NCBI GenBank assembly: GCA_035765535.1
Contig: DASTXE010000005.1
Coordinates: 36,684-100,683, forward strand
Direction: 5' to 3'
From: Rickettsiales bacterium
Lineage (GTDB): Bacteria; Pseudomonadota; Alphaproteobacteria; Rickettsiales; JABCZZ01
DNA length: 64,000 nt
The position numbers were made by a program, and so were the translations under genes. Below, in pieces: positions 4,508 through 38,127 of this stretch. The notes beneath the pieces are model-generated. The model did no database searches, was not told the DNA's origin, and worked only from the letters and a program-made list of their open reading frames with translations. Every line of letters begins with the position of its first letter. The first letter of the stretch is position 1.

Positions 4508-4596
4508 AGTTAAACACTCCGAGGTTGATTTGAGCGGATGCTATTCATTTATTCTTGAACCGTCAAGATGTAATGTAGTAACTCATACCGGGAGGT

Positions 4597-12922: not shown

Positions 12923-12941
12923 TTATATTATCTCCGTAACG

Positions 12942-17567: not shown

Positions 17568-17578
17568 TTTAGGGTCCT

Positions 17579-18913
17579 TTACTTCATGCCCAGGATACGC
17601 GCGAGTTCCGTATAACCGCGTTCGAGATCGCTTGGTTCATCCTTGCGCTGGCGTAGGAAGTTATCGATGGCAGGATATATTTGAATAGCTCTGTCCACTT
17701 CCGGGTCCGTGCCTTTGCGGTAAGCGCCAAGGCGGATCATTTCCGCCATGTTCTCGTACGTGGAAAGAATCTGACGTGCTGCCGTTACGAGCTTGTTTTC
17801 TTCCTCCGTATTGCAATCCGGCATGGTACGCGAAACGCTGCGCAAAATATTGATGGCGGGGAAGCGGCCGCGTTCGGCGATGGAGCGGTCGAGAATGATA
17901 TGACCGTCCAGAATGCCGCGCACGGCGTCGGCAATCGGTTCGTTATGATCGTCGCCATCCACCAGCACGCTGAACATGGCGGTGATGGAGCCTGAACCTA
18001 CGGCGCCCGGGCCTGCACGTTCCAGAATCATCGGCAGTTCGGAGAATACAGTTGGCGTATAACCCTTTGTGGTTGGCGGCTCACCGGCGGAAAGGCCTAT
18101 CTCGCGTTGCGCCATGGCAAAGCGTGTGACGGAGTCCATGATGCACAATACATTTTTGCCTTGATCGCGAAAATACTCCGCTACGGACAGGGTGAAATAA
18201 GAAGCCTGACGCCGCATCAGGGCGGAATCGCTGGAGGTGGCCACGACCACGACCGAGCGTTTCAGGCCTTCCTCGCCCAGATCGTCCTCGATGAATTCCT
18301 GTACTTCGCGGCCGCGCTCGCCGACGAGACCGATCACGTTGACATCGGCTTGCGAATAGCGTGCCAGCATGGACATAAGAATGGATTTCCCCACCCCCGA
18401 ACCTGCGAAGATGCCCATACGCTGGCCGCGGCAGCAGCTCAGGAAAGTGTTGATGGCGCGCACGCCGAGGTCGATCTTGCCGCGTACACGCTGGCGGGTG
18501 TGGGCGGGCGGCGGCTCGCCACGCAGTTTGTAGGGAGTTTTGCCCATCGGCAGTATGCCGCCGCTATCCATCGGTTCGCCCAGCGGATTGATGACGCGGC
18601 CGAGCCAGGAGTCGTCCGGAAAAATGGCGGATTCATAACCCAGAAATGTAACCTGCGCGCCGAGGCCGATGCCTTCCAGGCTGTTATAGGGCATCAGCAG
18701 CGCACGGTCTTCACGGAAGCCGATAACTTCGGCGATGACCTTCGGCAGCCTGCCGTTGATGGGAATGATGCCTTCAATCTGGCAGCGCGCGCCAACGCTC
18801 AGAATTTTCTCAATCCCACTGCATTCCACCAGCAATCCCTTCACGGACAACACTTTGCCGACAAGGTTATGCGTCGGCAGATGCGCTATCTCGGCAAGGA
18901 TATGTTCAAGCAT
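17579..18913 (-). CDS. fliI: Flagellum-specific export ATPase
   Basis: 444 aa. Walker A GSGVGKS and F1/T3SS ATPase-like core (IGLVGERGREV, VLCIMDSVTRFA). Confidence 0.93.
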   Translation of the reverse strand: MLEHILAEIAHLPTHNLVGKVLSVKGLLVECSGIEKILSVGARCQIEGIIPINGRLPKVIAEVIGFREDRALLMPYNSLEGIGLGAQVTFLGYESAIFPDDSWLGRVINPLGEPMDSGGILPMGKTPYKLRGEPPPAHTRQRVRGKIDLGVRAINTFLSCCRGQRMGIFAGSGVGKSILMSMLARYSQADVNVIGLVGERGREVQEFIEDDLGEEGLKRSVVVVATSSDSALMRRQASYFTLSVAEYFRDQGKNVLCIMDSVTRFAMAQREIGLSAGEPPTTKGYTPTVFSELPMILERAGPGAVGSGSITAMFSVLVDGDDHNEPIADAVRGILDGHIILDRSIAERGRFPAINILRSVSRTMPDCNTEEENKLVTAARQILSTYENMAEMIRLGAYRKGTDPEVDRAIQIYPAIDNFLRQRKDEPSDLERGYTELARILGMK

Positions 18914-19604: not shown

Positions 19605-20153
19605 ATGAGCAGTTTTAAGAAAGACTTTCTTGCCGGGCTTTATTACTACCGCAAGGAAGACATGCATGAATGCAAGCTCATCAATGCACGCATGAGCTGG
19701 ATGATCTACATGCAGACTCTGCTCATTACTTCCTATTTTATTATTGCGACGAATTCCGATCAGGTGTTCGTGCTTTATAACTCACTGCTGCTGTTTGCGA
19801 TCGCGGTGTATTTCGCACTTTCGCTCGGCAAGACAGTAAGAGCAGCGGAGAAGATGATCCTTGCATGGCATTATAAGGAAAAGCGTTTGTTCAAGAGCCT
19901 CGAAACCATAGAGGATCCTTTACTTAAGCAAGATCTGGAAAGCTTCTTCGTTGCCGATAAATACGGTGCGACCGATGAAGAGGATCTGAAGAATTCCAAC
20001 GCGTTTTCTTTGAACAAAACCGTTACGCCGGTGATTATTGTGTTCTGGTTCGGCCTATTGGTGTTTAGCTGCTTTAATTTTATCCACCATCAATCTCATG
20101 GTGCGGCGGATACAACAAGCAACGCATTGGAAAAGCAGTTGGACGGTCGCTAG
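19605..20153 (+). CDS. Hypothetical membrane protein (182 aa)
   Basis: Three hydrophobic segments (WMIYMQTLLITSYFIIA, LLLFAIAVYFALSL, PVIIVFWFGLLVFSCFNF). No recognised family. Confidence 0.45.
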   Translation: MSSFKKDFLAGLYYYRKEDMHECKLINARMSWMIYMQTLLITSYFIIATNSDQVFVLYNSLLLFAIAVYFALSLGKTVRAAEKMILAWHYKEKRLFKSLETIEDPLLKQDLESFFVADKYGATDEEDLKNSNAFSLNKTVTPVIIVFWFGLLVFSCFNFIHHQSHGAADTTSNALEKQLDGR

Positions 20154-22931: not shown

Positions 22932-24188
22932 ATGCGTTTACAAGAATTAAAGCGTAAATCGCCCGACGAGTTACTTACGCTTGCCGAAGAATATCAGATC
23001 GAGAATGCCGGCTCGATGCTCAAACAGGACATTATTTTCGCGATCCTGAAAAAAGTTGCCGAAAACACTCCGATCATTGGCGAAGGTGTGATTGAGCTGC
23101 TGCAGGACGGATTCGGCTTCCTGCGCTCTCCCGAAGCCAATTATCTTGCAGGCCCTGACGATATTTATGTTTCACCGAGCCAGGTGCGCCGCTTCGGCCT
23201 GCGCACAGGCGATACGGTGGAAGGCGAAATCCGTGCCCCCAAAGACGGCGAGCGTTATTTTGCCCTGCTGAAAGTCAACAGCATCAACTTCGATCCGCCG
23301 GATTCCATCAAGCACAAAATTAACTTCGACAACCTTACCCCGCTCTATCCGGATAAAAAACTCCAGATGGAGAATGAAAAGGCTTCCAATAAAAATGATC
23401 TCAGCACCCGTGTGATCGACATCGTTGCCCCGCTCGGCAAAGGCCAGCGCGGATTGATCGTGGCGCCGCCGCGTACGGGTAAAACCGTTATTCTCCAGAA
23501 TATCGCACACTCTATCACGGCAAACCATCCGGAATGTTTCCTGATCGTGCTGCTGATTGATGAGCGTCCTGAAGAAGTGACGGACATGCAGCGCACAGTA
23601 AAAGGTGAAGTGGTCAGTTCCACGTTCGATGAACCGGCTTCACGCCATGTCCAGTTGGCTGAAATGGTGATCGAGAAGGCGAAGCGTCTTGTGGAGCATA
23701 AGAAAGACGTGGTCATTCTGCTCGACTCCATTACGCGTCTGGCCCGTGCTTATAACACCGTGATTCCTTCTTCCGGTAAGGTTCTGACCGGCGGTGTGGA
23801 TGCCAATGCGCTGCAGCGCCCGAAGCGTTTCTTCGGTGCGGCACGTAACATCGAACAGGGTGGCTCGCTCACGATTATTGCGACGGCGCTGATCGAAACC
23901 GGTTCGCGCATGGACGAAGTGATCTTTGAAGAATTCAAGGGTACGGGTAACTCCGAACTTATCCTTGACCGTAAGCTCGCCGACAAGCGTACATTCCCGG
24001 CGATCGACATCACCAAGTCCGGCACACGTAAGGAAGACCTGCTTTACGATAAGGGCATGCTTACGAAAGTATGGGTGCTGCGTCGTATCCTTAACCCGAT
24101 GGGCGTTATGGACGGCATGGAGTTCCTGCTGGATAAGCTTAAAGACGCCAAGACGAATGACGATTTCTTTGAGCGTATGAATAAATAA
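22932..24188 (+). CDS. rho: Transcription termination factor Rho
   Basis: 418 aa. N-terminal [24 protein letters not shown]-binding domain GFGFLR, and Walker A PPRTGKT. Confidence 0.96.
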
Positions 24189-24241: not shown

Positions 24242-26674
24242 TTATGGAGTCAGTTTATCGCTCTTGCCTTGCTTGCGGGTGTCCGCGAGGAAGGTTTTGA
24301 TGGTTTTGATATCCTGGTCGATATTGGGCAGGTTGTCGTAATCGGTCGAGCCTGATTCGCTCGTGATAAAGAGGAAGCTTTGCCTGTCCGGATTGTCTTT
24401 CAGCAGGGGTGTAAAATAATCGCGCAGATATTGTATCTGTCCGGCATCATGCTCATAGACGTAAGCCGTAGCCAGTTTCAGTAGCACTCCTGATTCTTCA
24501 ATATTGAGAGGTGCACCGGGATCGTTACGGTTGCTGAGGATTTCCTCGGCCGTCAGTGTTACGTTGGGCCAGTCCTTATTGTTCCAGTAGATGCTCAGGC
24601 GCAGCATGCTGCCTTCGGGACTGTTGTCGCTGTTCAATACTTCAATAGCCTTATCCGAGTGGCCCTCTGCCGCGAGTGCTTTTGCCGTCAGGCGAATGCG
24701 CTGTAGCTGGACATCCGCTGGAAGATCGCCGTAACCAGTGTTTTTCAGGGTATCGAGCGCTTTGTCCGGCTGGTGATTCTTCAGGTAAATCTCGGCGAGC
24801 CTTGCGCCCACACGGCTGCGTTCGCTGCCCTGAAGACGGTTCTGCACCTGCTGGTTCAGAAGTTCGGCGGCTCTTTCCAGCAGGTCAATCTTCACCAGGC
24901 GCTCCGACAGATTACGTATCATCATATCGCCGTCGCGTCCGCTCGGAACGAGATCCCTGAACTCATAAAAGAGCGCAAGCGCATCCAGCGCCAGCATGCT
25001 GTCTGCGCCGTTCTTATTATAGAGATAAACGAAAATGGATTCCATTTTGGCCGCTACATTAATTGTGCCTGCTGATTCCGGGAAGTAGCGGACGATTTCG
25101 CGGAATGTGTGCAGTGCATCGCTATAACGTTTCTGTTCAAGATAAAGGTTGCCTAGCAATGTTAGGATATTGAGTTCCAGGCTGTCGCCACGCCAGACGA
25201 ATAAAAGCTTTTCCAGCTGAGTGATGGCCTTGTCCGTTGTAATTCTGTCCTCACGCACGAGCATGTTCGTCAGGGAGAAGGAAGCGCTTGCGCGTATCAA
25301 CGGATCGTCCAGGTAGCTTGACTGTTTTTCCCAGATACGCTGCGCCTCATCTTCATTACCGGTTTCGGAATAGATTTTGCCGCGCAAATATTCGATATAA
25401 CGCTGTATAGGTTCGTCCAGATTGCTCTTTACAATAATATTGAATGTGTTGAGAGCGGTATCGAAATCCTTTCGGTTAATGCTGGCATTCGCGGAGATGA
25501 TGGCCAGTTTCTGGATGAAAGAAGGGGGGTATTTGCTGATATAGCGTTCGTAATTGCCCGGAAAATCAAACACCGAGGAAGAATCGCCCAGTTCCTGATG
25601 GCAAAGAGTCCGCCACATTGCAGCCTCTTTATCGTCCGCCAGTTCGGGGGAGGCAAAATCGCGTTCAGCCCTCTCCAGATGGTGCAAGAAGAAATGCGCT
25701 GCACCGCGCATTGCCGCGACGTTGTTTGTGCGGTAGAATTGATAGCTGCTGCGCAATATGTCATTAGACATGCCCAGCGCTTCCGCGAATAGTCCCTGGC
25801 CGAGATAAATCTCCAGCAGTTTAAGGCGGGCCTTGTTGGAGGAATCCATATCGCCGTAAGCAATTTCATGGAACAGCTTCATCTCTGTTGCGACAAAGTT
25901 CTTATTGTCGCTGAGTTTCCAGCGCTGGTAGGGGAAGAGTGTTTTTGCTTTGCCTTCGGGTTCTTTTTCCGGCAGGTCGCTCAGCTGCTCGACGATAGAG
26001 GGCGAGAATTTCAATCCTAAAGGAGCGGAAACTTTTACCACTTCCTTGTTTGTGTCGACCGTTACCGCATCCAGTTTTTTCTGTACTACTACACCCTGAA
26101 CGGTCTGCAGCAGGTTAAATTCTGCAAAGGAGCGTGTAGGGTAGGTGCCGCTGCCGATTTCGCTGGTGGGCACTACCAGGAAGTCGCTGCCGGTCATCGG
26201 TTCATTCACTGTGATGGGCGCGCGTATATTCTTCAGGATAATAGCCAGTGAGGATTGTTTATCCGTTCCGGTGCTGATGTAAGGAGTCAGGATGGATGAA
26301 GGCTTATGAATGCCCTGGTGCAGGAGAATGTTGATAGCGGTCTCAGAAGGTTTTTCGACCGTGGCGGAATAGTCACCACTCAACTGAAATGTGAATATCT
26401 CTGCCTGTGTTGAGGGGATCTGGGCGATATGGGTTACGGAGCGCAGATTATTCTTTTTCAATGCGTCCAGCGTGATATGTGCTGAGTTTTCTGCCACAAG
26501 CCACATCGTCTGTTCGTAAATGAAGACAGCGAAGGGGTCGTCCTGCAGTGGCACTTCGATGGTTTCCGTATCGGCAGGGTGCTCCTGTTGCTGCGCATAT
26601 GCCATATCCGGCATATTACACAGGCAAAGAAGAAGGGCCGTCAGGACGGATAGAATTCTGGTCAGCATAAACAT
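24242..26674 (-). CDS. Large secreted TPR-repeat-like protein (810 aa)
   Basis: Signal peptide (LLCLCNMPDMAYA). The C-terminal two thirds form a helical-repeat region with TPR-like periodicity (e.g. LGNLYLEQKRYSDALHTFREIVRYFP, ARLAEIYLKNHQPDKALDTL). Function unknown. Confidence 0.6.
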   Translation of the reverse strand: MFMLTRILSVLTALLLCLCNMPDMAYAQQQEHPADTETIEVPLQDDPFAVFIYEQTMWLVAENSAHITLDALKKNNLRSVTHIAQIPSTQAEIFTFQLSGDYSATVEKPSETAINILLHQGIHKPSSILTPYISTGTDKQSSLAIILKNIRAPITVNEPMTGSDFLVVPTSEIGSGTYPTRSFAEFNLLQTVQGVVVQKKLDAVTVDTNKEVVKVSAPLGLKFSPSIVEQLSDLPEKEPEGKAKTLFPYQRWKLSDNKNFVATEMKLFHEIAYGDMDSSNKARLKLLEIYLGQGLFAEALGMSNDILRSSYQFYRTNNVAAMRGAAHFFLHHLERAERDFASPELADDKEAAMWRTLCHQELGDSSSVFDFPGNYERYISKYPPSFIQKLAIISANASINRKDFDTALNTFNIIVKSNLDEPIQRYIEYLRGKIYSETGNEDEAQRIWEKQSSYLDDPLIRASASFSLTNMLVREDRITTDKAITQLEKLLFVWRGDSLELNILTLLGNLYLEQKRYSDALHTFREIVRYFPESAGTINVAAKMESIFVYLYNKNGADSMLALDALALFYEFRDLVPSGRDGDMMIRNLSERLVKIDLLERAAELLNQQVQNRLQGSERSRVGARLAEIYLKNHQPDKALDTLKNTGYGDLPADVQLQRIRLTAKALAAEGHSDKAIEVLNSDNSPEGSMLRLSIYWNNKDWPNVTLTAEEILSNRNDPGAPLNIEESGVLLKLATAYVYEHDAGQIQYLRDYFTPLLKDNPDRQSFLFITSESGSTDYDNLPNIDQDIKTIKTFLADTRKQGKSDKLTP

Positions 26675-26805
26675 TGATTATCATAATAGAAAAATAGTCA
26701 CTACCGAATTTTAGTGGTGCTTTACGGTTTTTTATGGTTACAATACAAGCGGGTTTTACGGGTGTGCCTGCCGTATCTTAACGCTTATTATTCATAGACT
26801 CACAT

Positions 26806-28224
26806 ATGTTGAAGCTTATTGCTCCTTTCCGCGTTCTCTTCAGTCTCGACAGTTCACTTGTTGCCGCCAATCACGGAGCGTTTACTGCCTTTCTCAGGCA
26901 AGTGGAAAAGGAACTGCAGGATCCGCAAAGCGGCATATGCAGTCGCATCAGCCCGGCGCTTGACGTTATCGTGAATGTACCGGTTGAGGCGAGCGATTCA
27001 GAAATCGGGTCGCGCTATATCAGCGTGAATGCCAATGGCAGCCTTTACCTCTCACCGCGCGTTTTTACAGTGCATTTCAAAGCTTCCGAAGCGGAAGAGC
27101 TCAAGAAAATTTATACCAAGTCCGCCCTTATGGCGGATGAAGTGGTCGGACAACATTCGAATTGTTTTACCCCGGATATCGCATCTTTGCGGGTGGACCT
27201 GCAGGATAACACCATTGCGACATTGTCGTTAGAGCTGGCCGTGGACACTAAACAGACTGGTGCTTGGAACCGGCTGGATGAATGGACGACCGTATTGGTA
27301 CATTTTCTGTTGGCAGGCCTTTACGAGACTTATATCTTTCCTCTGTTGGAAGCCTTGCGGGAATTCAGTGAGAAGGTGGAAAGCCACTTTATCCAATCGG
27401 TGAATGATTATAACATATTCCTCGATCTGGTTGGTGATGCTGACGAGCCGCGCAATGATATCCGTAAGCGTTTTATCCTGATGTGGGTAAACCGGACACT
27501 CTGCTATTATAACGATTATCCCGTGAACGCATGGATGAAGCCGTTGTTCAAGCAGCATGAGATCCAGCATGTGCGCGGAGCGGAAGTGCATCTGAATTCA
27601 GGAAACAGTCTGGTGCTTATGCCGGCGGGAATGGATACGCGTCACCTGGGACAGTTGTGGGATGTCATGCTGACCGCGCAATACTACTATGCGGCGCTGG
27701 ACGTGGTGAATCTGAATCTCGTTAAATATATCGGCACCACCTTTAACCGGCAGAGCAGCCGTAATCTGCGCCGGCTGAGCGGAGAAATGGAATCCATTAT
27801 CAACAAGATTACCATCCTGCAGGTACGTTATAATGACTTTATGATGGAATTGCAGGGAGTGCCGCGCAAACTGTTCCATGTTCTGCAGAAGGAATGGGAT
27901 TTTGCCGTGCTGGCTGGAAACGTTTCCAAGAAGCTTGAACTGTGCAAATCCAATATCGAGGTGCTGAATCAGGAGACGAATCACCGTAACCAGGGGCGTA
28001 CGGAAGTGGTGCTGACAAGCCTCACCGGCATGGGAGTGCTGAATCTGTTTGTCGAGTTGGGAAATTATGCCACGCAGATGCCGCCGGAGCATATGGGGAT
28101 GGTGGGCAAAATCCCTGGATTTATGGACTTAGGCTTCATCATGTCCGGTAATGCACTAAGCTGGATCGGTATTTTTATTGCTGTTTCCGTTATTGTCTAT
28201 ACTGCCAAGAACCGTCTTTTATAA
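26806..28224 (+). CDS. Hypothetical protein with long soluble N-domain, coiled-coil and C-terminal 2-TM hairpin (CorA-like topology)
   Basis: 472 aa. C-terminus: ...NQGRTEVVLTSLTGMGVLNLFVELGNYATQMPPEH...ALSWIGIFIAVSVIVYTAKNRLL. This resembles the CorA arrangement (LT..., G-x-N, MPE) but has no GMN motif. Confidence 0.5.
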   Translation: MLKLIAPFRVLFSLDSSLVAANHGAFTAFLRQVEKELQDPQSGICSRISPALDVIVNVPVEASDSEIGSRYISVNANGSLYLSPRVFTVHFKASEAEELKKIYTKSALMADEVVGQHSNCFTPDIASLRVDLQDNTIATLSLELAVDTKQTGAWNRLDEWTTVLVHFLLAGLYETYIFPLLEALREFSEKVESHFIQSVNDYNIFLDLVGDADEPRNDIRKRFILMWVNRTLCYYNDYPVNAWMKPLFKQHEIQHVRGAEVHLNSGNSLVLMPAGMDTRHLGQLWDVMLTAQYYYAALDVVNLNLVKYIGTTFNRQSSRNLRRLSGEMESIINKITILQVRYNDFMMELQGVPRKLFHVLQKEWDFAVLAGNVSKKLELCKSNIEVLNQETNHRNQGRTEVVLTSLTGMGVLNLFVELGNYATQMPPEHMGMVGKIPGFMDLGFIMSGNALSWIGIFIAVSVIVYTAKNRLL

Positions 28225-28827
28225 ATGATACAAATCAAAACACTGATTGGTTATTGTTCGTTAGTCGCCGCCGCCATCAGTTATGTGTTTTACCTGCGTT
28301 CCGTGCTTCAGGGGCGAACGAAGCCGCATGCTTTTTCCTGGACGACCTGGGGAATCCTGACCTCCATAGCATTTTATGCCCAATATACCAATGAGGCCGG
28401 GGCGGGGGCGTGGGCAACCTGTCTGGTGGCTGCTTTCTGTTTTCTTGTGGCGTTGCTTGCATTCTTTATCGGAGAAAAAGATATAAGACGCAGCGATTGC
28501 ATTATGTTCGTGGGGGCATTGTGCATATTGCCAGTCTGGTATGCGACTAAGAATCCGCTTACGGCCGTTATTATGGTGGCGGTTATCGACGCTTTCGGGG
28601 GGTATTATCCCACTTTTCGCAAATCCTATTATAAACCACATCAGGAAATGCTGCAGCTATACATTATCGGCCTTATACAGGTGATACTTTCCCTGTTTGC
28701 CATGGAGCATTATTACCTTGTGAATATTTTTTACCCTCTGTTCATTATTTGCGGCAATACGGCCTTTATCGCCATGGTTGTGTGGCGGCGGCATAAAATG
28801 AATATTCCCGAATCGGTAGTGGACTGA
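28225..28827 (+). CDS. Hypothetical 7-TM membrane protein with internal duplication
   Basis: 200 aa. The ATG immediately follows the TAA of the upstream gene. Seven hydrophobic segments. A K-P-H loop follows both TM1 (RSVLQGRTKPHAFS) and TM5 (PTFRKSYYKPHQEM), suggesting a 3+1+3 architecture. Confidence 0.5.
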   Translation: MIQIKTLIGYCSLVAAAISYVFYLRSVLQGRTKPHAFSWTTWGILTSIAFYAQYTNEAGAGAWATCLVAAFCFLVALLAFFIGEKDIRRSDCIMFVGALCILPVWYATKNPLTAVIMVAVIDAFGGYYPTFRKSYYKPHQEMLQLYIIGLIQVILSLFAMEHYYLVNIFYPLFIICGNTAFIAMVVWRRHKMNIPESVVD

Positions 28828-28942
28828 TTTCTATTTATATATTATAGTGTTGTGGTTAGCTTTCCGGCATATATTCCATCTTTGGGCAAGAGTTTCCGCG
28901 TGGGATATGCAAGGAGTGCTTCAAACATGAACCGTTAGGGCT

Positions 28943-29923
28943 ATGAACCAGCAATTAATGCTTCAGATAGCGCCGCTCGCAGCCGTTTTCTGCATACTGC
29001 TCTTCCTATTGTTATGGAAAAGCGACCGTAGCAGGCGTATCGAACAACGCATTCAGCGCATGAAGAATCGTAAATCCGGTGTCGTGGTCCAAAAGCAAGT
29101 GGATGCGCTTACCTTGCGCCGCAAGACACAGGAACATTCCGTTCCCATTATCGGTGTCATCATCAGTAAATTGCCTACGCAGGCGGCGCTCAAGGCCAGA
29201 CTGGAACGCGCAGGCCTGGCTATTCCTACAGACCGTTACGTTATGGGCTCTGCGGGTGTTGTTGCGCTTTGTGTCGGTCTGTTTCTGCTGACTGGCAAGT
29301 CGGCGTTCGGCGGCATCATAGTTGGGGTGATGCTGGGCGTGGTTGTCCCGCATTTTGTTATCGGTTTTCTGGGAGGGCGCAGGATCAAAAAATTCCTGGT
29401 GCTGTTTCCGGATGCAATTGACTTCATCGTACGCGGGTTGCGATCCGGTCTGCCGGTAACGGAATCCATGAATATCGTCGGCAATGAGATGGCGGAGCCG
29501 ATCAGGAGCATATTTTCCCATATCGGAGAATCGGTAAGGCTTGGCGTGCCGCTGGACAAAGCTTTGCAGGATATGGCGCGAAAGCTCAATTCGACGGAAT
29601 TTAACTTCTTTGTTACCAGTATTATTCTTCAGCGTGAAACGGGTGGTAACCTTTCGGAAATCCTTAATAATCTTTCTGACGTATTGCGTAAGCGCCTCAT
29701 GATGCGGCTTAAAATTAAAGCGATGTCATCGGAAGCAAAAGCATCCGCCATGATTGTCGGCTCACTGCCGTTTATCGTGATTCTGGCGTTGCGGTTTGTT
29801 TCGCCGGGCTATCTCGATCCGCTTATAGATACGGCCAAGGGCAATATGATTGCACTGGGATGTGGTTTCAGCCTGGCGCTTGGAATCGGCATCATGATTA
29901 AAATGACGAAGTTCGAGATTTAA
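28943..29923 (+). CDS. tadB: Tad/Flp pilus assembly inner-membrane platform protein TadB (T2SS-F family)
   Basis: 326 aa. T2SSF-type domain (FPDAIDFIVRGLRSGLPVTESM..., LQRETGGNLSEILNNLSDVLRKR). Confidence 0.85.
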   Translation: MNQQLMLQIAPLAAVFCILLFLLLWKSDRSRRIEQRIQRMKNRKSGVVVQKQVDALTLRRKTQEHSVPIIGVIISKLPTQAALKARLERAGLAIPTDRYVMGSAGVVALCVGLFLLTGKSAFGGIIVGVMLGVVVPHFVIGFLGGRRIKKFLVLFPDAIDFIVRGLRSGLPVTESMNIVGNEMAEPIRSIFSHIGESVRLGVPLDKALQDMARKLNSTEFNFFVTSIILQRETGGNLSEILNNLSDVLRKRLMMRLKIKAMSSEAKASAMIVGSLPFIVILALRFVSPGYLDPLIDTAKGNMIALGCGFSLALGIGIMIKMTKFEI

Positions 29924-29942
29924 CAGGGGAGGGAAACAAAAA

Positions 29943-30917
29943 ATGCCGATTCTTCAGTACCTCCCCGATATTAAAGCCAATGACGTTTACATGTTTCTCA
30001 CAGGCCTGATGGGGCTTGTGGTGCTGTATATGCTTGCCACCAGCATGTTTGAGACCCAGCGCAGAGCAGCCCGTGTACGGTCACTTCACCAGCGCAGAGC
30101 GCTTCTGAAGGGGCAGCTAATGGCGCCGCGCAAACGCGGCAAGAAAAGTGGCTCCAGCTCAACCAGCGTGGATCTGATACGTCTGATTGTTGACAAGATG
30201 AACCTGATCCAGAAGTCACAGGTCGGAAAGATGACCAAAACACTTTCCAATGCCGGTTACCGCTCGAAAGATGCGATTTTTATCTATGCATTTTTCCAGC
30301 TGGTGGGACCGATTTTTGCCTTCGTAGTGGGAATTTACGATCTGGACATTAAATTTTCCGATCCGTTTGCTGACAAGACGAATTTGATGATATTGCTAGG
30401 GATGGTGCTGCTGGGGTTCAAACTGCCGCAGCTTATCGTCAGCAATGCGTTGAAGAAACGCTATCACAAGGTTCAGCAGGGGCTTTCCGACACTCTGGAT
30501 CTTATGATGATCTGCGCGGAAGCGGGATTGAGTCTCGCCGCTTCGCTCGACCGTGTGTCGCGCGAGCTTGGCATGACCTATCCCGAACTGGCTGAAGAGC
30601 TTGCTCTGACTTCGATTGAGCTCGGCTTCCTGCCGGACCGTAAGAAAGCGCTCAGTAATCTCGTGGAACGTGTTGATATTCCCGAAATACGTGGTGTGGC
30701 GGGGGTGTTGATTCAAACTGAGAAATATGGGACACCTGTTGCGCAGGCGCTACGCGTGCTGGCGGCGGAGTTCAGAACCCAGCGCATGCTGCGTGCCGAG
30801 CAGAAGGCCGCGCGCCTTCCGGCAATCATGACGGTTCCCATGATCGTTTTCATTCTGCCGACCCTGTTCGTGGTGATCTTAGCCCCGGCATTGATTAAAC
30901 TTTTTGCAACGATATAG
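29943..30917 (+). CDS. tadC: Tad/Flp pilus assembly inner-membrane platform protein TadC (T2SS-F family)
   Basis: 324 aa, with LSDTLDLMMICAEAGLSLAASLDRV, IQTEKYGTPVAQALRVLAAEFRTQR and RAEQKAARLP. Confidence 0.85.
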   Translation: MPILQYLPDIKANDVYMFLTGLMGLVVLYMLATSMFETQRRAARVRSLHQRRALLKGQLMAPRKRGKKSGSSSTSVDLIRLIVDKMNLIQKSQVGKMTKTLSNAGYRSKDAIFIYAFFQLVGPIFAFVVGIYDLDIKFSDPFADKTNLMILLGMVLLGFKLPQLIVSNALKKRYHKVQQGLSDTLDLMMICAEAGLSLAASLDRVSRELGMTYPELAEELALTSIELGFLPDRKKALSNLVERVDIPEIRGVAGVLIQTEKYGTPVAQALRVLAAEFRTQRMLRAEQKAARLPAIMTVPMIVFILPTLFVVILAPALIKLFATI

Positions 30918-30986
30918 TTGCTCTTTCCCTTTAATTATGATTATTTGCCTAACTCTACTTTTATAAAAAAAGGAACGTTACCCACT

Positions 30987-32354
30987 ATGCAAGTCACCGA
31001 AGTTAAAAATGAAGGCCTCAAGCGCGAATTTACCGTAAAGCTGGATGCCAAAACCCTTAACGAGAAGACGGAAGCCCGCCTGGAGTCGATGTCCAAGAAC
31101 ATGAAGATCGACGGATTCCGCCCCGGTCATGTGCCCATGAACGTGCTGAAGAAGCGCTATGGAAAACATGTCGCCGGCGAAGTTATGGAAGGTTCGGTGA
31201 ATGAAGCGACCCAGAACGTTCTGCGTGAAAAGAACCTGACGCCTGCCATGCAGCCCAAAGTGGAAGTCACCGCTTACGAAGAAGGCGGCGATCTGGAATT
31301 CAAGATCGATATGGAAGTGCTGCCGGAAGTGCCGGAACTGGATTTCTCCCAGATTGCACTCGATAAACTGACTTGCGATATCGATGAAAAGGAAGTCGAT
31401 GAGGCGATTGAACGTCTTGCAGAGCGTAACCAGAACTTCGTGCGTGAAAAAGAAGGCGCGAAAGCTAAAAAGGGCAACCGTGCCGTGATCGATTTCACCG
31501 GCAAGGTGGATGGTGTGGCGTTTGAAGGCGGTGCTGCAAAGAAGTTCGCGCTTGAACTCGGCAGCGGCAGCTTCATCGCGGGGTTTGAAGACCAGATTGT
31601 CGGCGCCAAGGAAGGTGACGACTTGGTTGTAAAAGTTACGTTCCCGGAAAACTACCATAAGGCCGATCTTTCCGGTAAGCCCGCTGAATTCGACGTGCAT
31701 GTGCATGAAATCCTCAAAGGCGAAAAACCGGAAGTGAATGACGAATTCGCCAAGAAATTCGGCTTCGAGAACCTCGAAGGCCTCAAGAAAGCAATCAAAG
31801 ATCAGCTGGGCGGCGACCATGAATCCATGTCGCGCGTGAAGATCAAAAAGCAATTGTTTGACGATCTGGACAAGCGCCTGACGTTCCCCGTTCCGCAAAG
31901 CATGTTCGACGCTGAATTCAAGGCGATCTGGGACAAGCTGGAACAGGCGAAGAAAGAAGGCGACGAAGCGATTTCCAGCAAGAGCGACGAAGAGCTGCGC
32001 ACCGAATACACCAAGATCGCTGAACGCCGTGTAAAGCTCGGTATTGCGCTTTCGGATATCGCTGCCAAGAATAAGCTCCAGATCACGCAGGAAGAACTTT
32101 CCCGTGCTGTGATGCAGCAGGCGAGGCAGTTCCCGGGCCAGGAACGCGCTATCTTTGATTTCTACCAGAAAAACCCGCAGTATCTGCAGGAGCTGCGTGG
32201 CCCAATCATGGAAGAAAAAGCAGTCGATCTGATTCTCGGCAAAGCCAAGGTGACCGAACGCAAGGTTTCCCAGGAAGAGCTGATGAAGGAAATCGACGAA
32301 GACGCTCCGGCTGCCGAGGAAAAGCCTAAGAAGAAAAAGGCTGCTAACTCTTAA
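30987..32354 (+). CDS. tig: Trigger factor
   Basis: Start placed at ATG 30987 (MQVTEVKNEGLKREFTV). FKBP-type segment DFTGKVDGVAFEGG. Lies upstream of clpP. Confidence 0.93.
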   Translation: MQVTEVKNEGLKREFTVKLDAKTLNEKTEARLESMSKNMKIDGFRPGHVPMNVLKKRYGKHVAGEVMEGSVNEATQNVLREKNLTPAMQPKVEVTAYEEGGDLEFKIDMEVLPEVPELDFSQIALDKLTCDIDEKEVDEAIERLAERNQNFVREKEGAKAKKGNRAVIDFTGKVDGVAFEGGAAKKFALELGSGSFIAGFEDQIVGAKEGDDLVVKVTFPENYHKADLSGKPAEFDVHVHEILKGEKPEVNDEFAKKFGFENLEGLKKAIKDQLGGDHESMSRVKIKKQLFDDLDKRLTFPVPQSMFDAEFKAIWDKLEQAKKEGDEAISSKSDEELRTEYTKIAERRVKLGIALSDIAAKNKLQITQEELSRAVMQQARQFPGQERAIFDFYQKNPQYLQELRGPIMEEKAVDLILGKAKVTERKVSQEELMKEIDEDAPAAEEKPKKKKAANS

Positions 32355-32387
32355 GCCCATCACGCATAACCTTAATATGGAAGTATT

Positions 32388-33062
32388 ATGACACAGGATA
32401 TGAAGAATATTTTTGATAAAATGATGGATGCAGGTAATGTTCCGCACATGGACCTCGTCCCGATGGTAGTGGAACAGAGCAGCCGCGGCGAACGTGCGTA
32501 TGACATTTTCTCCCGCCTGCTGAAAGAACGCATTATCTTCCTGACCGGACAGGTGCATGACGGCATGGCTTCGCTGATCGTGGCGCAGCTGCTGTTCCTT
32601 GAATCGGAAAACCCGGACAAGGAAATCTCCATGTACATCAACTCGCCGGGTGGCGTTGTGACTGCAGGTCTGTCGATCTACGACACGATGCAGTACATCA
32701 AGCCGAAGGTTTCCACGCTCTGCATCGGCCAGGCAGCTTCCATGGGCTCCCTGCTGCTCACGGCAGGTGCTACCGGTAAGCGTTTTGCTACGCCGAACGC
32801 ACGCATCATGATCCACCAGCCTTCCGGCGGGTTCCAGGGTCAGGCTTCGGATATCGAAATCCACGCCAAGGAAATCATCTCGCTGCGTCACCGTCTCAAT
32901 GAGATCTATGTGAAGCATACCAGCCAGAAGCTTTCCACCGTTGAAAAGGCAATGGATCGCGATAATTTCATGTCCGCTGAAGCGGCTAAGGATTTCGGCC
33001 TGATCGACGAAATCGTTGACAGCCGTCATCCGGAAAAAGCTGCAGCCGATAAGAAGAAATAA
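32388..33062 (+). CDS. clpP: ATP-dependent Clp protease proteolytic subunit
   Basis: 224 aa, with [20 protein letters not shown], catalytic Ser context GQAASMGS, and IMIHQPSGG. Confidence 0.96.
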
Positions 33063-33087: not shown

Positions 33088-33120
33088 AACCCCCGCTGGC
33101 CTTTGCCGCGGGGGTTTTTT
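33088..33120 (+). terminator. Intrinsic terminator after clpP
   Basis: AACCCCCGC-11 nt loop-GCGGGGGTT followed by a T-run. It overlaps the stop codon of the convergent GT-C paralog 1. Confidence 0.7.
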
Positions 33121-34765
33121 ATTGCGCAAGGCAATGATGGGCTTTCCCAATGGGTGAGAGGACTTCATTCAGAAAGTCATCTTTCTTTACAGCAACAAAA
33201 ATGACCGGATATTTGTGCATCTCTGCACCGGCGAGCGGAGTTGCGGATGCGAGGGCAGGAAATGTGGTTATCTGTTTATCAAGTGCGTTGCACTCGATCA
33301 GATGCATCATAGGGGCAGAATTGAGATAGGTGTTGACGAAGACGAGATGAGTAAAACGATTCAGGATACCTGCATTCTTTGCCTGCTCCAGCATGGCAAG
33401 GAGCATGCTATCCTTATAAATACGCATATCGCGGCGGTTATTCCAAAGCAGAGTGGTACGATAGTAAGGCATCAGAGCTGCGAGAGCGGAAATATTACGG
33501 GGGTTGCTATCCCCTAATTCCGCATACATTTGCAGGTTGGAGGGGGCGAGCATAATTGCATCCGTTCTGCCCATGACAATAAGTGAATCTGGACCGAGTG
33601 ATTGCAGATAAGCTGAGACCTGTCGCCATTCTGTCTCGGTCATACCGTATTCCGTCTGATCGTCGAAGCGGTAGATAGGATTGGCGCATTGCAGTCCTAG
33701 AGTGAAGAGCGTAAGCGCGATTATAATATTGAAAAAGCGCAAATGCCTGTTGTAATACTGCAAACCCTCGGCAAGCAGCCAGCCCATGGGTATGGCCAGC
33801 AAAGGCAGCATCCAAAGACTATGCCGGTCTCCGGCGAACGGGTAAGCGCGGCTTATCCATAAAGCTGCGGCGAAGCACAATGTTGTGCCTGCCAGTGCCA
33901 GCGTAGATTTAAGCACGGTATTCTTGCCATTGATTACGGGTATCAACGCGAGGACCAATAAGAAGATAAAAGGCCATCCCGGGAATATATAACTGATGAC
34001 GGAGATAATATAAGACGGAAGCAACGCAATCTGCTCCCAGATATTCTGCGAGGCCATTTCCTGGCGGGCTAATGCATCTACGGGCGCGAGCGCCGGTTGC
34101 CATAGCAGATAGGCACTCCAGAAAAGCATAGCAGGAATGGAATTGGCCAGCAGCCAGTTTGCTGCTTCCCTGCGGGGAATCTTTGACTGCAACATACATG
34201 ACAGTTCATATGCGAACAGGCAGAGCGCTGTGAAAATGCCTGAGAAATGCGTAAAACAGGCCAGTCCAGCGCATAGGCTATAGGCAATAAGCCATGAGGT
34301 CTTACGATTTTCGCGCCATGCCAGATAAGCATAAAATGCAGCTGTCAGCAGGCATAGGAATAAGGTGTAATTACGCACAACGTAAGACTCGACGATGCAG
34401 CCCTGGCTGAAGGTAATTAATATGGCTGCGCATATGCCGCAGAACTGGCCGCCCAGCTTTTTACCGGTTACATAATAAAGTGGGATCAGTGCTAAGCCGA
34501 ACAGCAGAGAAAAGCCGCGCGTGAATTGCACGGAGTCGCCCAGCATCTGCCAGTAATGGCGTAAGATATGGCCGAGCGGAGGATGGGTCTCCATCAGTGA
34601 GAACTGCCATACCTGTCGGAGATTCTTGCCCTGAGCGATGCCAATATGCATCAGTTCGTCTGCATGGTAATGGTAAGCGTCCACCCCATGCACGCGCAGC
34701 CAAGTACCCACTGCTACCAGCAGCGCAAGCCATAGCATTGCGGAGCGTTTACTTAAGGCATTCAT
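33119..34765 (-). CDS. GT-C fold membrane glycosyltransferase, ArnT/PMT (family 39/83)-like, paralog 1
   Basis: 548 aa. First-loop acidic motif HADELMH, then ETHPPLGHILRHYWQMLGDS..FTRGFSLLFGLALIPLYY. It has more than 10 hydrophobic segments and a C-terminal soluble domain ending in GKAHHCLAQ. Confidence 0.7.
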   Translation of the reverse strand: MNALSKRSAMLWLALLVAVGTWLRVHGVDAYHYHADELMHIGIAQGKNLRQVWQFSLMETHPPLGHILRHYWQMLGDSVQFTRGFSLLFGLALIPLYYVTGKKLGGQFCGICAAILITFSQGCIVESYVVRNYTLFLCLLTAAFYAYLAWRENRKTSWLIAYSLCAGLACFTHFSGIFTALCLFAYELSCMLQSKIPRREAANWLLANSIPAMLFWSAYLLWQPALAPVDALARQEMASQNIWEQIALLPSYIISVISYIFPGWPFIFLLVLALIPVINGKNTVLKSTLALAGTTLCFAAALWISRAYPFAGDRHSLWMLPLLAIPMGWLLAEGLQYYNRHLRFFNIIIALTLFTLGLQCANPIYRFDDQTEYGMTETEWRQVSAYLQSLGPDSLIVMGRTDAIMLAPSNLQMYAELGDSNPRNISALAALMPYYRTTLLWNNRRDMRIYKDSMLLAMLEQAKNAGILNRFTHLVFVNTYLNSAPMMHLIECNALDKQITTFPALASATPLAGAEMHKYPVIFVAVKKDDFLNEVLSPIGKAHHCLAQ

Positions 34766-36455
34766 GTGCTTTTCCGTTGGGTGCGATCACCTGCTCGAAG
34801 AACTCTTTCTTGGAAACAGTCATGAATGCTGCCGGGGCAAGCGCCTTTTCCTCATCCGAAACCGATTTCTTGAGTGTTATCTCAGGGAAATTAAAGGAGG
34901 GGAAGGAGACGATCTGCTTATCAAGCTGTTTGCAGGTAAAGAGCCATGGCAGAGGTTCATAGCCTTTGGCATAGACGTCCCACACGGTTTTCATAAAAAC
35001 AAGTTTGTCCACGCCGTTCAGCATACCCTTCTGCTGCGCTTGGTTCAACGTTGCAAGCAGGATGCCAGTGGTTTCGATTCGGCGCTCGTAAGGATGAATG
35101 ATAATATGCGTATTAGCATAAGGAATTATCACGGCAGCATTTTTATCCGTGAAAGCATCCTTGCCGAGGTAAGGGTAAGTATCGTGCAACATAACAGCGT
35201 CATCACGCGCGGCGATAATGACGGAGTGGTTGTCCAGTGTCTTCAGGTAATCCGTCATGGCCTGCCAGTTTTCCTGTTTCATCTGGTATTCGCTGGGCTC
35301 TTTTTCAAAGCGTTGTCCGGCGTTGCAGAGAATAAGACTTCCTAGCAAGATCAGTGTGGCGACAGCAATATTGCCATTGATGCGGGTTTTTTGTTCGATA
35401 TACGGGCTCAAAAGCTCGGCCCCATTGCCCATCATCCAGCCTGCAGTGACGATGATGAAGGGCATCACCCATATACCGTGGCGCGTGCCTGCGGGATAAT
35501 AATGATTGATGGCGATTAGGAACATGCCGACTTCCAGCGCGATAACGCAGATCGCCGAGAAATCTCGGAATTTTTTGTCTTCGCGAACGACCGGCAGGAA
35601 CAGTAGAAAGATTATCAGCGGTAGGAAATAAGCCGATGGCAGCACGTATAACGTAGCGGTGAGCGGATTGATCAGGGTGATCAGAATATATTTATACCAC
35701 TCATCGACATGGAAATAAGGTGAAGAAAGCACAATGCCTTTGAAAAACCAGATCAGGTAAATGCCTATGGCGATTGCGGCGAGCGTAAAGTTAAGCGCAA
35801 TCCATTGCAGTTGGCTCCTAAGCGGGCGTTTAGTAACGTAAGCATCCACGGTTTCATAAGCTGCAATAGGAAAGATGGCGAGTATGGCGGAGAAATGCGT
35901 GAGGGCTGCAAGCAGTGCATAGAATACGTAAAGCCATAGATGTTTATTCTGTCTGCTATCGCGCCATTGCACATAGTAATACAGGAACATCGTGGCGAAG
36001 AAGACGAAGATAGAGTAGTTGCGGGTGACATAGGATTCGATGATCGAGCCGTAGCTGTAGGCTGCGAGTGCTGCGGCGCACATACCTGCAAACTGGCCCT
36101 TGAGGCGGTTTCCAATGCAGTAATAGACCGGGATTGTCGCAATGCCGAAGACAAGTGACAGGCAGCGCGAGAACCAGACGGAATCATCTATCTGAAGCCA
36201 GTAATAGCGTAACAGATGGCCAAGCGGCGGATGGGTTTCATAGAGCGAGAGCACCATGAGCTGCTTCAGCGACTTTGCCTTGGCGAGCCAGATATGCAGG
36301 ATTTCATCTTCGCTATAGTAATAGACGCCAGCGCCATGCACGCGGACGTAAATAGCCAGCAGGATGAGAACTGTCAGCCAGCCCCAGATGAAAGTTTTTG
36401 AGAAAATGCGTTCGTTATTCGGCATGGATTTTGTTTCCCGGAGGCGGTTCGACAT
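34749..36455 (-). CDS. GT-C fold membrane glycosyltransferase, ArnT/PMT-like, paralog 2
   Basis: 568 aa, with SEDEILH and ETHPPLGHLLRYYWLQIDDS..FSRCLSLVFGIATIPVYY. The C-terminus is NGKAHECLK. Its stop overlaps the paralog 1 start by 17 nt. Confidence 0.7.
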   Translation of the reverse strand: MSNRLRETKSMPNNERIFSKTFIWGWLTVLILLAIYVRVHGAGVYYYSEDEILHIWLAKAKSLKQLMVLSLYETHPPLGHLLRYYWLQIDDSVWFSRCLSLVFGIATIPVYYCIGNRLKGQFAGMCAAALAAYSYGSIIESYVTRNYSIFVFFATMFLYYYVQWRDSRQNKHLWLYVFYALLAALTHFSAILAIFPIAAYETVDAYVTKRPLRSQLQWIALNFTLAAIAIGIYLIWFFKGIVLSSPYFHVDEWYKYILITLINPLTATLYVLPSAYFLPLIIFLLFLPVVREDKKFRDFSAICVIALEVGMFLIAINHYYPAGTRHGIWVMPFIIVTAGWMMGNGAELLSPYIEQKTRINGNIAVATLILLGSLILCNAGQRFEKEPSEYQMKQENWQAMTDYLKTLDNHSVIIAARDDAVMLHDTYPYLGKDAFTDKNAAVIIPYANTHIIIHPYERRIETTGILLATLNQAQQKGMLNGVDKLVFMKTVWDVYAKGYEPLPWLFTCKQLDKQIVSFPSFNFPEITLKKSVSDEEKALAPAAFMTVSKKEFFEQVIAPNGKAHECLK

Positions 36456-38097
36456 ATTGTTCCAGATAGGTGTTTTCCTTCAGGCAGTGATAGGCTTTTC
36501 CGTTTTCGGATACAACCTGTTCCAGAAAATCTTTCTTGCGGACGATGAGCAGCATCGCCGGATTGGCGAAAGCTTCCTCAGCGGTAAATGATTTCCCCGT
36601 GGGAGGGAAAGTGAATATCTGCCTGTCCAGCTCCGGACAGCCTATCAGCACCGCCTGAGGATAAGAATGCATGAAGATAAGCCTTTCCACGCCGTCCAGC
36701 ATATGCTGTTCCTCTGCCGCCTTCAGCGTAGTGAGAAGAAGATTGCGTGTGCGTAGGCGGCGGTAATACGGATTCACGATCAAAGAGGTGCTCTCGTAGG
36801 GGATTTTCAGGGCCATATCCTTGCCCGTGAAAGCGGCATCGCCTAGATAGGGATAGATATCCTTGATGCGGAACGCTTCGTCGCGTTCGGCAATAATGGC
36901 GTCATGCTCGTCCAGTGTTTCCAGGTAATATTTTACAGCGTCAAGATTTGCCTGTTTGATGCCATATTCGCTATAGTCCGTGAAACGCCGCTGCGGGCTG
37001 TAAGCTAGCAGCCCGGCTGTGAGCAGCATGATTGCCATTGTATGAGTCTTGGAGGAATATGCACTGGCAGCATCTGATATGATGAGGGCAGCGCAGGGAA
37101 TAATAAGCGGAATCAGCCATAAATCGTGCCGCGTGCCGGACGAGGAATAATGCAGCGTGACGATCATGAAGATTTTGATGCCGATGCCGCAAGCCGCCAG
37201 TGCCAGGCAGTTGCGCGTGGCCTGTGAATGTTTTCCCGCACGTAGCGCAAACAATAGAATCAGCAGATAAAGAGCGTAGGGCGAGGGCAGGAGATAATCC
37301 AGATCGTGAAACGGATAAGACAGGGCATTATAGACTGTCTGGGTAAGATCGGTTGGGAAATGGGAATAAGGCTGGGCAAGTGCCAGAGTTTTCCGCCAGG
37401 GCAGTGTAATCAACACAGCTGAAACTGCCAGCAAGGCATTGATCCCAAGCCATTGCAGCAGCTTGGATTTCTGACCCGTACGATAGAGGCGGAGCGCTTC
37501 AAGCACCGCGAGCGGTGTAAGGCTCAGTACCGCAAAGAAATGTGTGAGGCAGGCGAGCAGGCCGAATCCGCCGTATTGTAGTAACGAGCGCAAGGAAGGC
37601 TTTTCACGCCAGGAGAGCCATGCGTCAAAGCTTAAGGAGAGAAAGAGCAGGAAAACTGTGTAATTGCGAGCGATATAGGATTGGATGATGCAGCCGAAGC
37701 TGAATGTTATCAATGCGGCTGCGCAGAGGCCCGCAAACTCACCACCCAGACGGCGGCCGATCCGGTAGTATAGTGGAACGAGTGCGATGCCGAACAGCAA
37801 TGAAAATAATCTTGAAAACCATACCGTATCCGAGATTTCCTGCCAGTAATGGCGCAGGATATTGCCCAATGGCGGGTGGGCCTCATAAAGGGAAAATTGC
37901 AGTACCTGTTTCAGGGAGTCTGCACCGGCAATGGCGGTGTGGAGCAATTCGTCGTCCCCGTAAGCATATTGGTCGACACCGTGCACACGTATGAAAATGG
38001 CGATAATTATCAATATTATCAGCCATGTTCTTATAAAAACTTTGGACATTGGCGGATTATTCCAATAATTATCTGTCTGGTTTTCCATTTTGGGCAA
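36415..38097 (-). CDS. GT-C fold membrane glycosyltransferase, ArnT/PMT-like, paralog 3
   Basis: 560 aa, with GDDELLH and EAHPPLGNILRHYWQEISDT..FSRLFSLLFGIALVPLYY. The C-terminus is NGKAYHCLK plus a 20-aa tail. It overlaps the paralog 2 start. The start could instead be the internal Met at 38049 (MSKVFIRTW). Confidence 0.7.
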   Translation of the reverse strand: MPKMENQTDNYWNNPPMSKVFIRTWLIILIIIAIFIRVHGVDQYAYGDDELLHTAIAGADSLKQVLQFSLYEAHPPLGNILRHYWQEISDTVWFSRLFSLLFGIALVPLYYRIGRRLGGEFAGLCAAALITFSFGCIIQSYIARNYTVFLLFLSLSFDAWLSWREKPSLRSLLQYGGFGLLACLTHFFAVLSLTPLAVLEALRLYRTGQKSKLLQWLGINALLAVSAVLITLPWRKTLALAQPYSHFPTDLTQTVYNALSYPFHDLDYLLPSPYALYLLILLFALRAGKHSQATRNCLALAACGIGIKIFMIVTLHYSSSGTRHDLWLIPLIIPCAALIISDAASAYSSKTHTMAIMLLTAGLLAYSPQRRFTDYSEYGIKQANLDAVKYYLETLDEHDAIIAERDEAFRIKDIYPYLGDAAFTGKDMALKIPYESTSLIVNPYYRRLRTRNLLLTTLKAAEEQHMLDGVERLIFMHSYPQAVLIGCPELDRQIFTFPPTGKSFTAEEAFANPAMLLIVRKKDFLEQVVSENGKAYHCLKENTYLEQYVEPPPGNKIHAE

Positions 38098-38127
38098 TTT
38101 ATAGCAACCTTAGCAAGAACACAAACA

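Follow-up and report, generated by a model that had tools for sequence, protein, structure and literature searches.

Proteins of the CorA group (CorA, ZntB, Mrs2, and CmaX; MIT superfamily, PF01544) are built from a cytoplasmic alpha/beta domain, long helices, a stalk helix that runs into the first transmembrane helix (TM1), a short outer loop that opens with a tyrosine motif, a second transmembrane helix (TM2), and a basic C-terminus. In CorA, which is pentameric, that motif is Y-G-M-N and includes the Mg2+-selecting GMN filter. A different fold, of seven helices in a 3+1+3 arrangement, is found in the SWEET uniporters, whose bacterial SemiSWEET relatives are halves (PF03083, MtN3-like clan), in the PQ-loop carriers cystinosin, PQLC2/Ypq, and MPDU1 (PF04193), and in the KDEL receptor (PF00810). 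The PnuC vitamin and nucleoside transporters (PF04973) are small prokaryotic carriers of a SWEET-related fold. Bacterial full-length seven-helix MtN3-type proteins that are recognisable as SWEETs are rare, numbering 20 proteins (PMC5972207). Here, we describe two adjacent genes, which we call A and B, in a stretch of DNA of 64,000 nucleotides (the window; positions 36,684 to 100,683 of the forward strand of contig DASTXE010000005.1, assembly GCA_035765535.1) from a Rickettsiales bacterium. We consider it somewhat probable that the two genes form an operon that is lineage-specific and translationally coupled, and that its products are inner-membrane proteins of transport type, each from an undescribed family within a known fold class.

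Gene A (26806-28224, + strand) encodes a protein of 472 aa and gene B (28225-28827, + strand) one of 200 aa, and the map of open reading frames (ORFs) of the window reproduced the exact coordinates of both as given in the original prediction, which had been made from the sequence of the window. Reading of the junction (28222-28227, + strand) revealed the letters TAAATG, i.e., the ATG of B directly follows the TAA of A, as had been claimed, and this lack of a spacer implies that the two genes are translationally coupled. The A sequence is identical to that of database protein VFT64_07855. Base composition is flat over the A-B region.

Tightly coupled A-B pairs were found on at least six verified contigs and in four unrelated gene contexts, so that the pairing first seen in the window does recur in other genomes. 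In the window, the two genes have a 0-nt spacer and lie between a gene for a tetratricopeptide repeat (TPR) protein and a pair of tadBC-like genes. The pairs in L001 and L002 (P0004/P0029, 8-nt overlap) and in L092 (P0005, with an uncalled B located by tblastn at 4501-5079) are syntenic with the window. The remaining pairs have other surroundings: in L093 the pair (P0008/P0036, 1-nt spacer) is between rpmB and a hydrolase gene, in L004 it follows a DEAD-box helicase gene (P0023/P0034, 14-nt spacer), and in a JGI contig it is on a short contig with no tad genes (P0015/P0045, 4-nt overlap). P0002/P0028 and P0003/P0030, whose A and B contigs are of equal length, are further candidate pairs. The recurrence of the tight pair in four unrelated contexts indicates that A-B is a true two-gene unit, and this unit is conserved, but within a narrow clade.

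The identities of A and B to the window proteins fall in parallel, being 65% and 63% for P0004/P0029, 54% and 60% for P0008/P0036, and 47% and 48% for P0015/P0045. In a neighbour-joining (NJ) tree of B, the A-linked proteins were all in one subclade (20 of 136 sequences), which also includes the solo B P0035. In the NJ tree of A, the B-linked proteins were spread widely and included a deep branch, and two A clades were solo. The A gene in L004 (8742-9986) is shortened to 414 aa and lacks TM2; that contig is from a 6x long-read assembly, so the shortening may be an indel error rather than a real truncation. The same genome also carries an intact solo A paralogue (L003).

The AlphaFold2 (AF2) model of A (pLDDT 81.9, pTM 0.77) has an alpha/beta domain (residues 1-277) followed by long helices, of which a 58-residue helix (366-423) ends as TM1; the loop after it has two short helices and leads to TM2 (448-471) and a basic tail. 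When this model was compared with the PDB using Foldseek, ranks 1-33 were exclusively CorA, CmaX, ZntB, and Mrs2 chains, although scores were weak (best E 0.0095, TM 0.15-0.35), with a probability of 0.97-1.0 for the top 8. In a viral structure library, the top match of A was a phage "Mg2+ transporter protein", which was non-significant. The CorA-like topology that was proposed for A, therefore, holds at the level of fold.

The predicted cytoplasmic alpha/beta domain of A (residues 1-277; 26806-27636, + strand), which is delimited based on the order of secondary structure in the AF2 model and on conservation, opens with a conserved strand, MLKLIAPFR, and holds a D-N-T-I motif; residues P7, R9, D134, N135, and T136 are invariant or near-invariant. 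The helical region that follows (residues 278-398; 27637-27999, + strand) comprises, based on AF2 and profiles, the helices 278-310, 318-348, and 351-363 and the start of 366-423. This region, with the motifs QYYY..D..N..L and D....LQG, is the best-conserved core across the wider A superfamily, and many distant relatives match solely profile positions ~280-430. TM1 (residues 399-423; 28000-28074, + strand; AF2 and conservation) is continuous with the stalk helix. Its end reads N-Y421-A422-T423-Q424 followed by M-P-P-E, in which Y421 and A422 are invariant, and the peptide EVVLTSLTGMGVLNLFVELGNYATQMPPE, which had been cited from this hairpin, was found at 28003-28089. The predicted extracytoplasmic loop (residues 424-447; 28075-28146, + strand) is conserved as QMPPE...MVG.IPGFMDLGF..SGN and has the two short predicted helices, based on AF2 and conservation. 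TM2 and the short basic C-terminus KNRLL (residues 448-472 plus the stop; 28147-28224, + strand), placed using AF2 and the sequence, complete the protein.

No G-M-N was found at the end of TM1 of A, as had been noted, the sequence there being Y-A-T-Q. Distant relatives of A have Y-G-R at this position, and only 2 of 149 A-superfamily members have a G[MVI]N within their last 90 residues. Exactly two hydrophobic segments are present in 134 of the 149 full-length members. In each of 14 members that were inspected, the two form a C-terminal hairpin with a basic tail, the distant ones having the Y-G-R that ends TM1.

A is a genuine conserved gene and not a chance ORF. A single-sequence search recovered 24 full-length homologues at 41-67% identity, and a profile search recovered 327 cluster representatives (of clusters at 50% identity) at E<=1e-3, including 135 at E<=1e-10. 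A had zero Pfam or NCBIfam matches at E<=1 and zero PADLOC matches, and the 83 A-superfamily members that were scanned against Pfam had none at E<=0.01. The A profile matched no CorA, nor anything else of relevance, among all PDB sequences. Alignment of the A superfamily profile with E. coli CorA by hhalign gave a probability of 3%; residues 1-257 of the CorA sequence that was used were checked to be identical to PDB 5n77. A tblastn search for CorA genes over all fetched loci found none. Since A has the domain order of CorA with neither a sequence match nor a GMN, it therefore has the architecture of CorA and yet fails the tests of CorA/MIT sequence and motif (PF01544). In addition to its lack of detectable sequence similarity to the CorA group and to having Y-A-T-Q where CorA has Y-G-M-N, A differs in being ~120-150 residues longer, with an extra beta region (residues 229-272), and in its 24-residue conserved outer loop.

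The AF2 model of B has seven helices and is of high confidence (pLDDT 95.4, pTM 0.90). Its top Foldseek matches in the PDB were AtSWEET13 (5xpd, TMq 0.54), Arabidopsis cystinosin (7zkz, TMq 0.50), and a KDEL receptor (7rxc, TMq 0.57), and 11 of the 12 best PDB matches were a SWEET, a cystinosin, or a KDEL receptor (TM 0.39-0.57, probability up to 1.0). Based on the confident seven-helix model and these matches, the proposal that B is a seven-helix protein of SWEET/PQ-loop type stands at the level of fold. The 3+1+3 duplication that was proposed with it is supported mainly via the fold match: alignment of residues 1-86 with residues 108-196 by hhalign brought the TKPH and YKPH segments into register, but was weak (P = 0.0028, 35 columns, 11% probability). 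The basic residues of B sit in loops 1-2, 3-4, and 5-6 and in the C-terminal tail, and these positions fit an N-out/C-in topology in which both K-P loops would be cytoplasmic.

Conservation within the B family is pronounced around these two loops. The first motif, K-P-H (residues 33-35; 28321-28329, + strand), is at the junction of TM1 and TM2, on the predicted cytoplasmic side, based on conservation and AF2. Its family form is T-K-P-H-x-F-S-W, in which P34 and H35 are invariant, including in Rhizobium and Burkholderia, and K33 is at least 90% conserved. The second K-P motif (residues 129-141, PTFRKSYYKPHQE; 28609-28647, + strand; conservation and AF2) covers the end of TM5 and the TM5-TM6 junction. 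Here B has K-P-H at residues 137-139, and the family form is P-T-F-R-K-S-x-x-K-P-x-E-E, in which P138 and E141 are invariant and H139 is not. Thus, the K-P-H described as repeated is indeed present twice in this protein, after TM1 and after TM5, but across the family the second copy is K-P-x-E-E. Other conserved features of B are Q53, A-G-x-G-A-W, D91, and W105, and the conserved motifs persist in homologues from cultured Rhizobium and Burkholderia. The P-Q dipeptide does not occur in the loops of B; the proline is in the equivalent position in T-K-P-H and Y-K-P-x-E-E, and the glutamine is lacking.

As for A, the numbers of relatives indicate that B is a genuine conserved gene and not a chance ORF. 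A single-sequence search recovered 49 homologues and a profile search 516, and B is encoded in at least 588 GTDB species representatives. These hosts are mostly Candidate Phyla Radiation (CPR), DPANN, predatory (Bdellovibrio- and Micavibrio-like), and alphaproteobacterial metagenome-assembled genomes (MAGs), and also include Rhizobium and Burkholderia. B had no Pfam, NCBIfam, or PADLOC match, 48 members of its family had no match to PF03083, PF04193, or PF00810 at E<=1, and the B profile matched none of the PDB sequences at E<=10. The original prediction had assigned neither protein to a family and, at the level of sequence, these scans bear it out. We also observed a weak match of B residues 111-153 (TM5 and the second K-P motif) to DUF7370 (E 0.018), which was seen in 3 of 48 family members; DUF7370 has 124 positions and might be a half-size relative of B.

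B thus resembles the SWEETs in its seven helices, its size of ~200 aa, its conserved prolines at the TM1-2 and TM5-6 junctions, and its conserved tryptophans, but it differs from them in its two motifs, and 0 of 48 members match MtN3_slv at E<=1. It resembles the PQ-loop carriers and the KDEL receptor in fold and in its repeated proline loop, which in each three-helix bundle follows the first helix and is predicted to be cytoplasmic. It differs from these in having K-P-H and K-P-x-E-E rather than P-Q, in its lack of a Pfam match, and in its prokaryotic distribution. The resemblance to PnuC is a lead only: B is common in lineages with reduced genomes, which a scavenging role would suit, but PnuC was not among the top 50 fold matches of B, and B has no Pfam match. 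Overall, A and B represent two new sequence families inside known fold classes.

We propose the following working model for the pair. With the cytoplasmic alpha/beta domain, stalk helix into TM1, outer loop, TM2, and basic C-terminus of the CorA (MIT-type) build, A would most likely form a funnel-shaped homo-oligomer, pentameric by analogy with CorA, with a gated pore. Given the Y-A-T-Q in place of GMN and the longer, conserved outer loop, A is unlikely to be a classical Mg2+ channel, and it would pass or sense something other than Mg2+. B, with a predicted 3+1+3 seven-helix fold and conserved, presumably cytoplasmic, K-P hinge loops after TM1 and TM5, would most likely move a small solute, either as an alternating-access facilitator or as a proton-coupled carrier, and would act alone in most organisms. 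In a small alphaproteobacterial clade, the two would be made together and would probably contribute to one physiological process; that the tight junction was retained while the pair moved among four contexts argues for such a shared role.

Several findings weigh against this model. At none of the 80 best B loci, taken from GTDB genomes, was there an A homologue within 8 kb, and the B homologue P0035 (60% identity) stands by itself, flanked by miaB and phoH. Solo homologues of A number at least seven (P0007, P0011, P0022, P0016, P0014, and those in L086 and L087). Many of the residues conserved in B lie at the cytoplasmic face rather than mid-membrane, an arrangement that would also suit a receptor or an enzyme. 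In addition, neither a riboswitch nor a consistent neighbour indicates a substrate for A-B.

The surroundings of the solo genes were diverse. The source MAG carries two more A paralogues (P0010 and P0011). A scan of metagenomes with the A profile found three loci only, none of which had a B, and A was not found on plasmids, nor was B in the viral contigs that were scanned. In the solo A clade of P0022 and P0016, the A gene and a CLC chloride-channel gene are convergent on two contigs (L089 8001-10754; L090 5530-8239), where they adjoin or overlap. For B, clustering of neighbours and a Pfam census over the 80 loci revealed no conserved partner, the neighbours being heterogeneous; seven of these loci have tandem copies of B. 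The order ruvB-B-queA is confined to one Falkowbacteria-like syntenic clade (e.g., L061 6955-9652), and the P0035 locus (L094 6584-10953) is an insertion of B in a conserved miaB-phoH-ybeY-corC operon, with an 11-nt overlap with phoH. In L020, B is flanked by a glycosyltransferase family 2 (GT2) gene and a sugar nucleotidyltransferase gene. On Rhizobium plasmids the order is TetR, flavoprotein, B; in Burkholderia it is AraC, B, and an NTF2-family protein, and in Paraburkholderia B is found with an SRPBCC-family protein. In one of the Rhizobium loci (L095 4612-7573, Rhizobium leguminosarum plasmid NZ_CP018235.1), the B homologue (~36-38% identity) is downstream of TetR and has a 4-nt overlap with the end of a gene for a 577-aa FAD/NAD(P)-binding protein. 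An Rfam scan of 29 B loci found no riboswitch preceding B, only tRNAs and, in L006, a TPP riboswitch 2.9 kb downstream of B. Both the miaB-phoH and the ruvB-queA settings include a tRNA-modification gene, which may be coincidence; a link of B to queuosine or tRNA modification through its queA and miaB neighbours found no support, as either case is a synteny within a single clade.

A more ambitious reading joins two independent proposals. In it, A-B would be a membrane system of two components, not described before, in which an oligomer of CorA fold and a carrier of SWEET/PQ-loop fold work together. Family B would constitute the principal prokaryotic branch of full-length, seven-helix SWEET/PQ-loop proteins, being an unannotated carrier of a scavenged metabolite with its members concentrated in lineages that are predatory or depend on hosts (CPR, DPANN, Bdellovibrio-, and Micavibrio-like). 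We regard both of these holding together as possible, but rather unlikely.

A and B might also form one physical complex, a two-component channel/carrier in which the cytoplasmic domain of A would dock on the K-P loops of B, with gating in either direction. Such a complex would be consistent with stop-start coupling being kept over four contexts and down to ~47% identity, with the concentration of conserved B residues in cytoplasmic loops, and with the spread of B-linked A proteins over the A tree, which suggests that the association is old. However, hundreds of species have a B that functions with no A, and solo paralogues of A exist, indicating that the conserved loops of B are not there for A, and the ~8 pairs known are too few for co-variation analysis. 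We therefore consider a complex unlikely. Less likely again, in our view, is that A and B are coupled for expression only, have unrelated functions, and owe their arrangement to a neutral operon within one clade. Members of each family overwhelmingly occur alone, B has neighbours as heterogeneous as ruvB-queA, miaB-phoH, TetR with a flavoprotein, and AraC with an NTF2-family protein, and the A-linked B proteins form one subclade, all of which would suit a neutral operon. What it does not lead one to expect is that the pair has moved as a unit among at least four unrelated neighbourhoods with its junction kept at -8 to +14 nt.

It is improbable that the pair is a signalling module, in which B would be a ligand receptor or "transceptor" whose state A would relay as an ion flux or as a signal in the cytoplasm. 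Receptor behaviour is seen in the KDEL receptor and PQLC2, which are seven-transmembrane proteins of PQ-loop fold, and chains of the KDEL receptor ranked among the best structural matches for B. B is predicted to turn its conserved surface to the cytoplasm, and A has a large conserved domain that is predicted to be cytoplasmic. Yet in none of its contexts is the pair linked to an output domain, a kinase, or a regulator, and B is usually alone.

A role for B as a polyprenyl-phosphate-sugar flippase, similar to the eukaryotic PQ-loop protein MPDU1, that serves the glycosyltransferases of the window, with A as an accessory, appears very improbable. Two PMT_2 genes of the GT-C glycosyltransferase class (33119-36455) and a gene for a GT2-methyltransferase fusion (37849-39603) are present in the window, and the B of L020 is located between GT2 and sugar nucleotidyltransferase genes. 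These glycosyltransferase genes are, however, >4 kb from the pair, past tadBC, tig, and clpP, and are absent from the syntenic L001; the families that the immediate neighbours of B at the 80 loci have in common included no glycosyltransferase family, and B has no match to the PQ-loop Pfam model that covers MPDU1.

The original prediction had placed A-B where the Tad ATPase and other assembly genes would be expected, and we give hardly any credence to the idea that the pair is a Tad/Flp pilus accessory that replaces missing assembly genes upstream of tadB-tadC. In the window, the pair is directly upstream of tadB-tadC on the same strand, with a gap of 115 nt (28828-28942) in which no terminator-like site was found, so that A-B may or may not be co-transcribed with tadBC, and a weak A homologue carries the JGI name "PulM". 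In the closest syntenic relatives (L001, L002, and L092), though, two genes, YjeF and a Pfam-less gene for a protein of 627-714 aa, separate B from tadB. In L004, L093, and the JGI contig, tad genes are absent from the vicinity of the pair, and neither A nor B has a Tad or type II secretion system (T2SS) family match. The A-B pair is not part of the Tad pilus machinery, and we rejected this largely refuted reading on context. Likewise, although divergent CorA-fold proteins without GMN act as defence effectors elsewhere, the notion that A is a membrane-permeabilising effector similar to the CorA effectors of type III CRISPR systems, with B as its partner or immunity protein, is scarcely credible and was rejected on context: there was no PADLOC match, there are no CRISPR or cyclase genes nearby, the surroundings are housekeeping genes (rho, tig, clpP) that are syntenic among relatives, and B was not found in viral contigs nor A on plasmids.

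The other genes around A-B in the window are as had been described, with a TPR protein gene on one side of the pair and two tadB/tadC-like genes on the other. Upstream of the pair are rho (22932-24188, + strand) and the gene for the TPR protein of 810 aa (24242-26674, - strand), which is divergent from A. The 131-nt intergenic region between the latter and A (26675-26805) is the presumed promoter region of A-B; it had one weak sigma-70-like match only, which was not above the expectation from shuffled sequences, and an Rfam scan upstream of A-B found no riboswitch. The TPR protein (~810 aa) has an N-terminus that resembles a signal peptide. Its divergent orientation to A is kept in L001 (7476-9899) and L092 (537-2960), and it is absent beside the A-B pairs outside of the syntenic relatives.

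Downstream of B are the tadB/tadC-like genes (28943-30917, + strand), both with Pfam T2SSF, and then, based on the ORF map of the window and a family scan, trigger factor and clpP. This tadB-tadC-like pair, here and in L001 (15475-17426) and L092 (8729-10699), has no adjacent gene for a Tad ATPase, secretin, or pilin, and in the window and two related contigs it directly precedes trigger factor and clpP. The TTG start of trigger factor at 30918 is probably too early, as the conserved N-terminus starts near MQVTEV. An ORF of 683 aa (30978-33029, - strand) that is antisense over trigger factor and clpP is almost certainly spurious. Further downstream, the tandem paralogous GT-C genes (33119-36455, - strand), which have weak PMT_2 matches, adjoin the GT2-methyltransferase fusion (37849-39603, + strand). 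This group may be a cluster for lipid-linked-sugar glycosylation, and no flippase was identified in it.

Additional observations were made in the more distant parts of the window. A protein of 281 aa with a prepilin-type N-terminal methylation motif is encoded directly downstream of a gene for an ATPase of FliI/type III secretion system type (16722-18913, - strand), and is an unusual neighbour for a flagellar ATPase. Judged from N-terminal sequences alone, there are apparently flagellar rod-like genes at 12134-13664 and an rpoN-like gene at 6111-7583. A 738-aa ORF (7832-10048, - strand) had no Pfam match, and a membrane protein of 182 aa (19605-20153, + strand) had a match to 8xMP, a family of octameric membrane proteins, that was weak (E 3.6e-4) and fell short of the family cut-off.

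Should these assignments of fold prove right, two families of considerable size that Pfam and NCBIfam lack would gain a structural class, and family A would show other uses of the CorA scaffold without the Mg2+-selecting GMN filter. The A-B operon is a starting point for finding a functional partner, although it is of limited practical value at present. The B locus of Rhizobium leguminosarum, a cultured host, would be a tractable system for the substrate of B. The large unannotated family B is the most interesting element of the pair. As full-length seven-helix prokaryotic members of this fold were thought to be rare (PMC5972207), the presence of B in at least 588 species bears on the origin of the eukaryotic SWEET and PQ-loop proteins. 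Many of the hundreds of species with B have reduced genomes and need to import most of their metabolites, and family B may account for an uptake function in CPR and DPANN to which no gene has been assigned.

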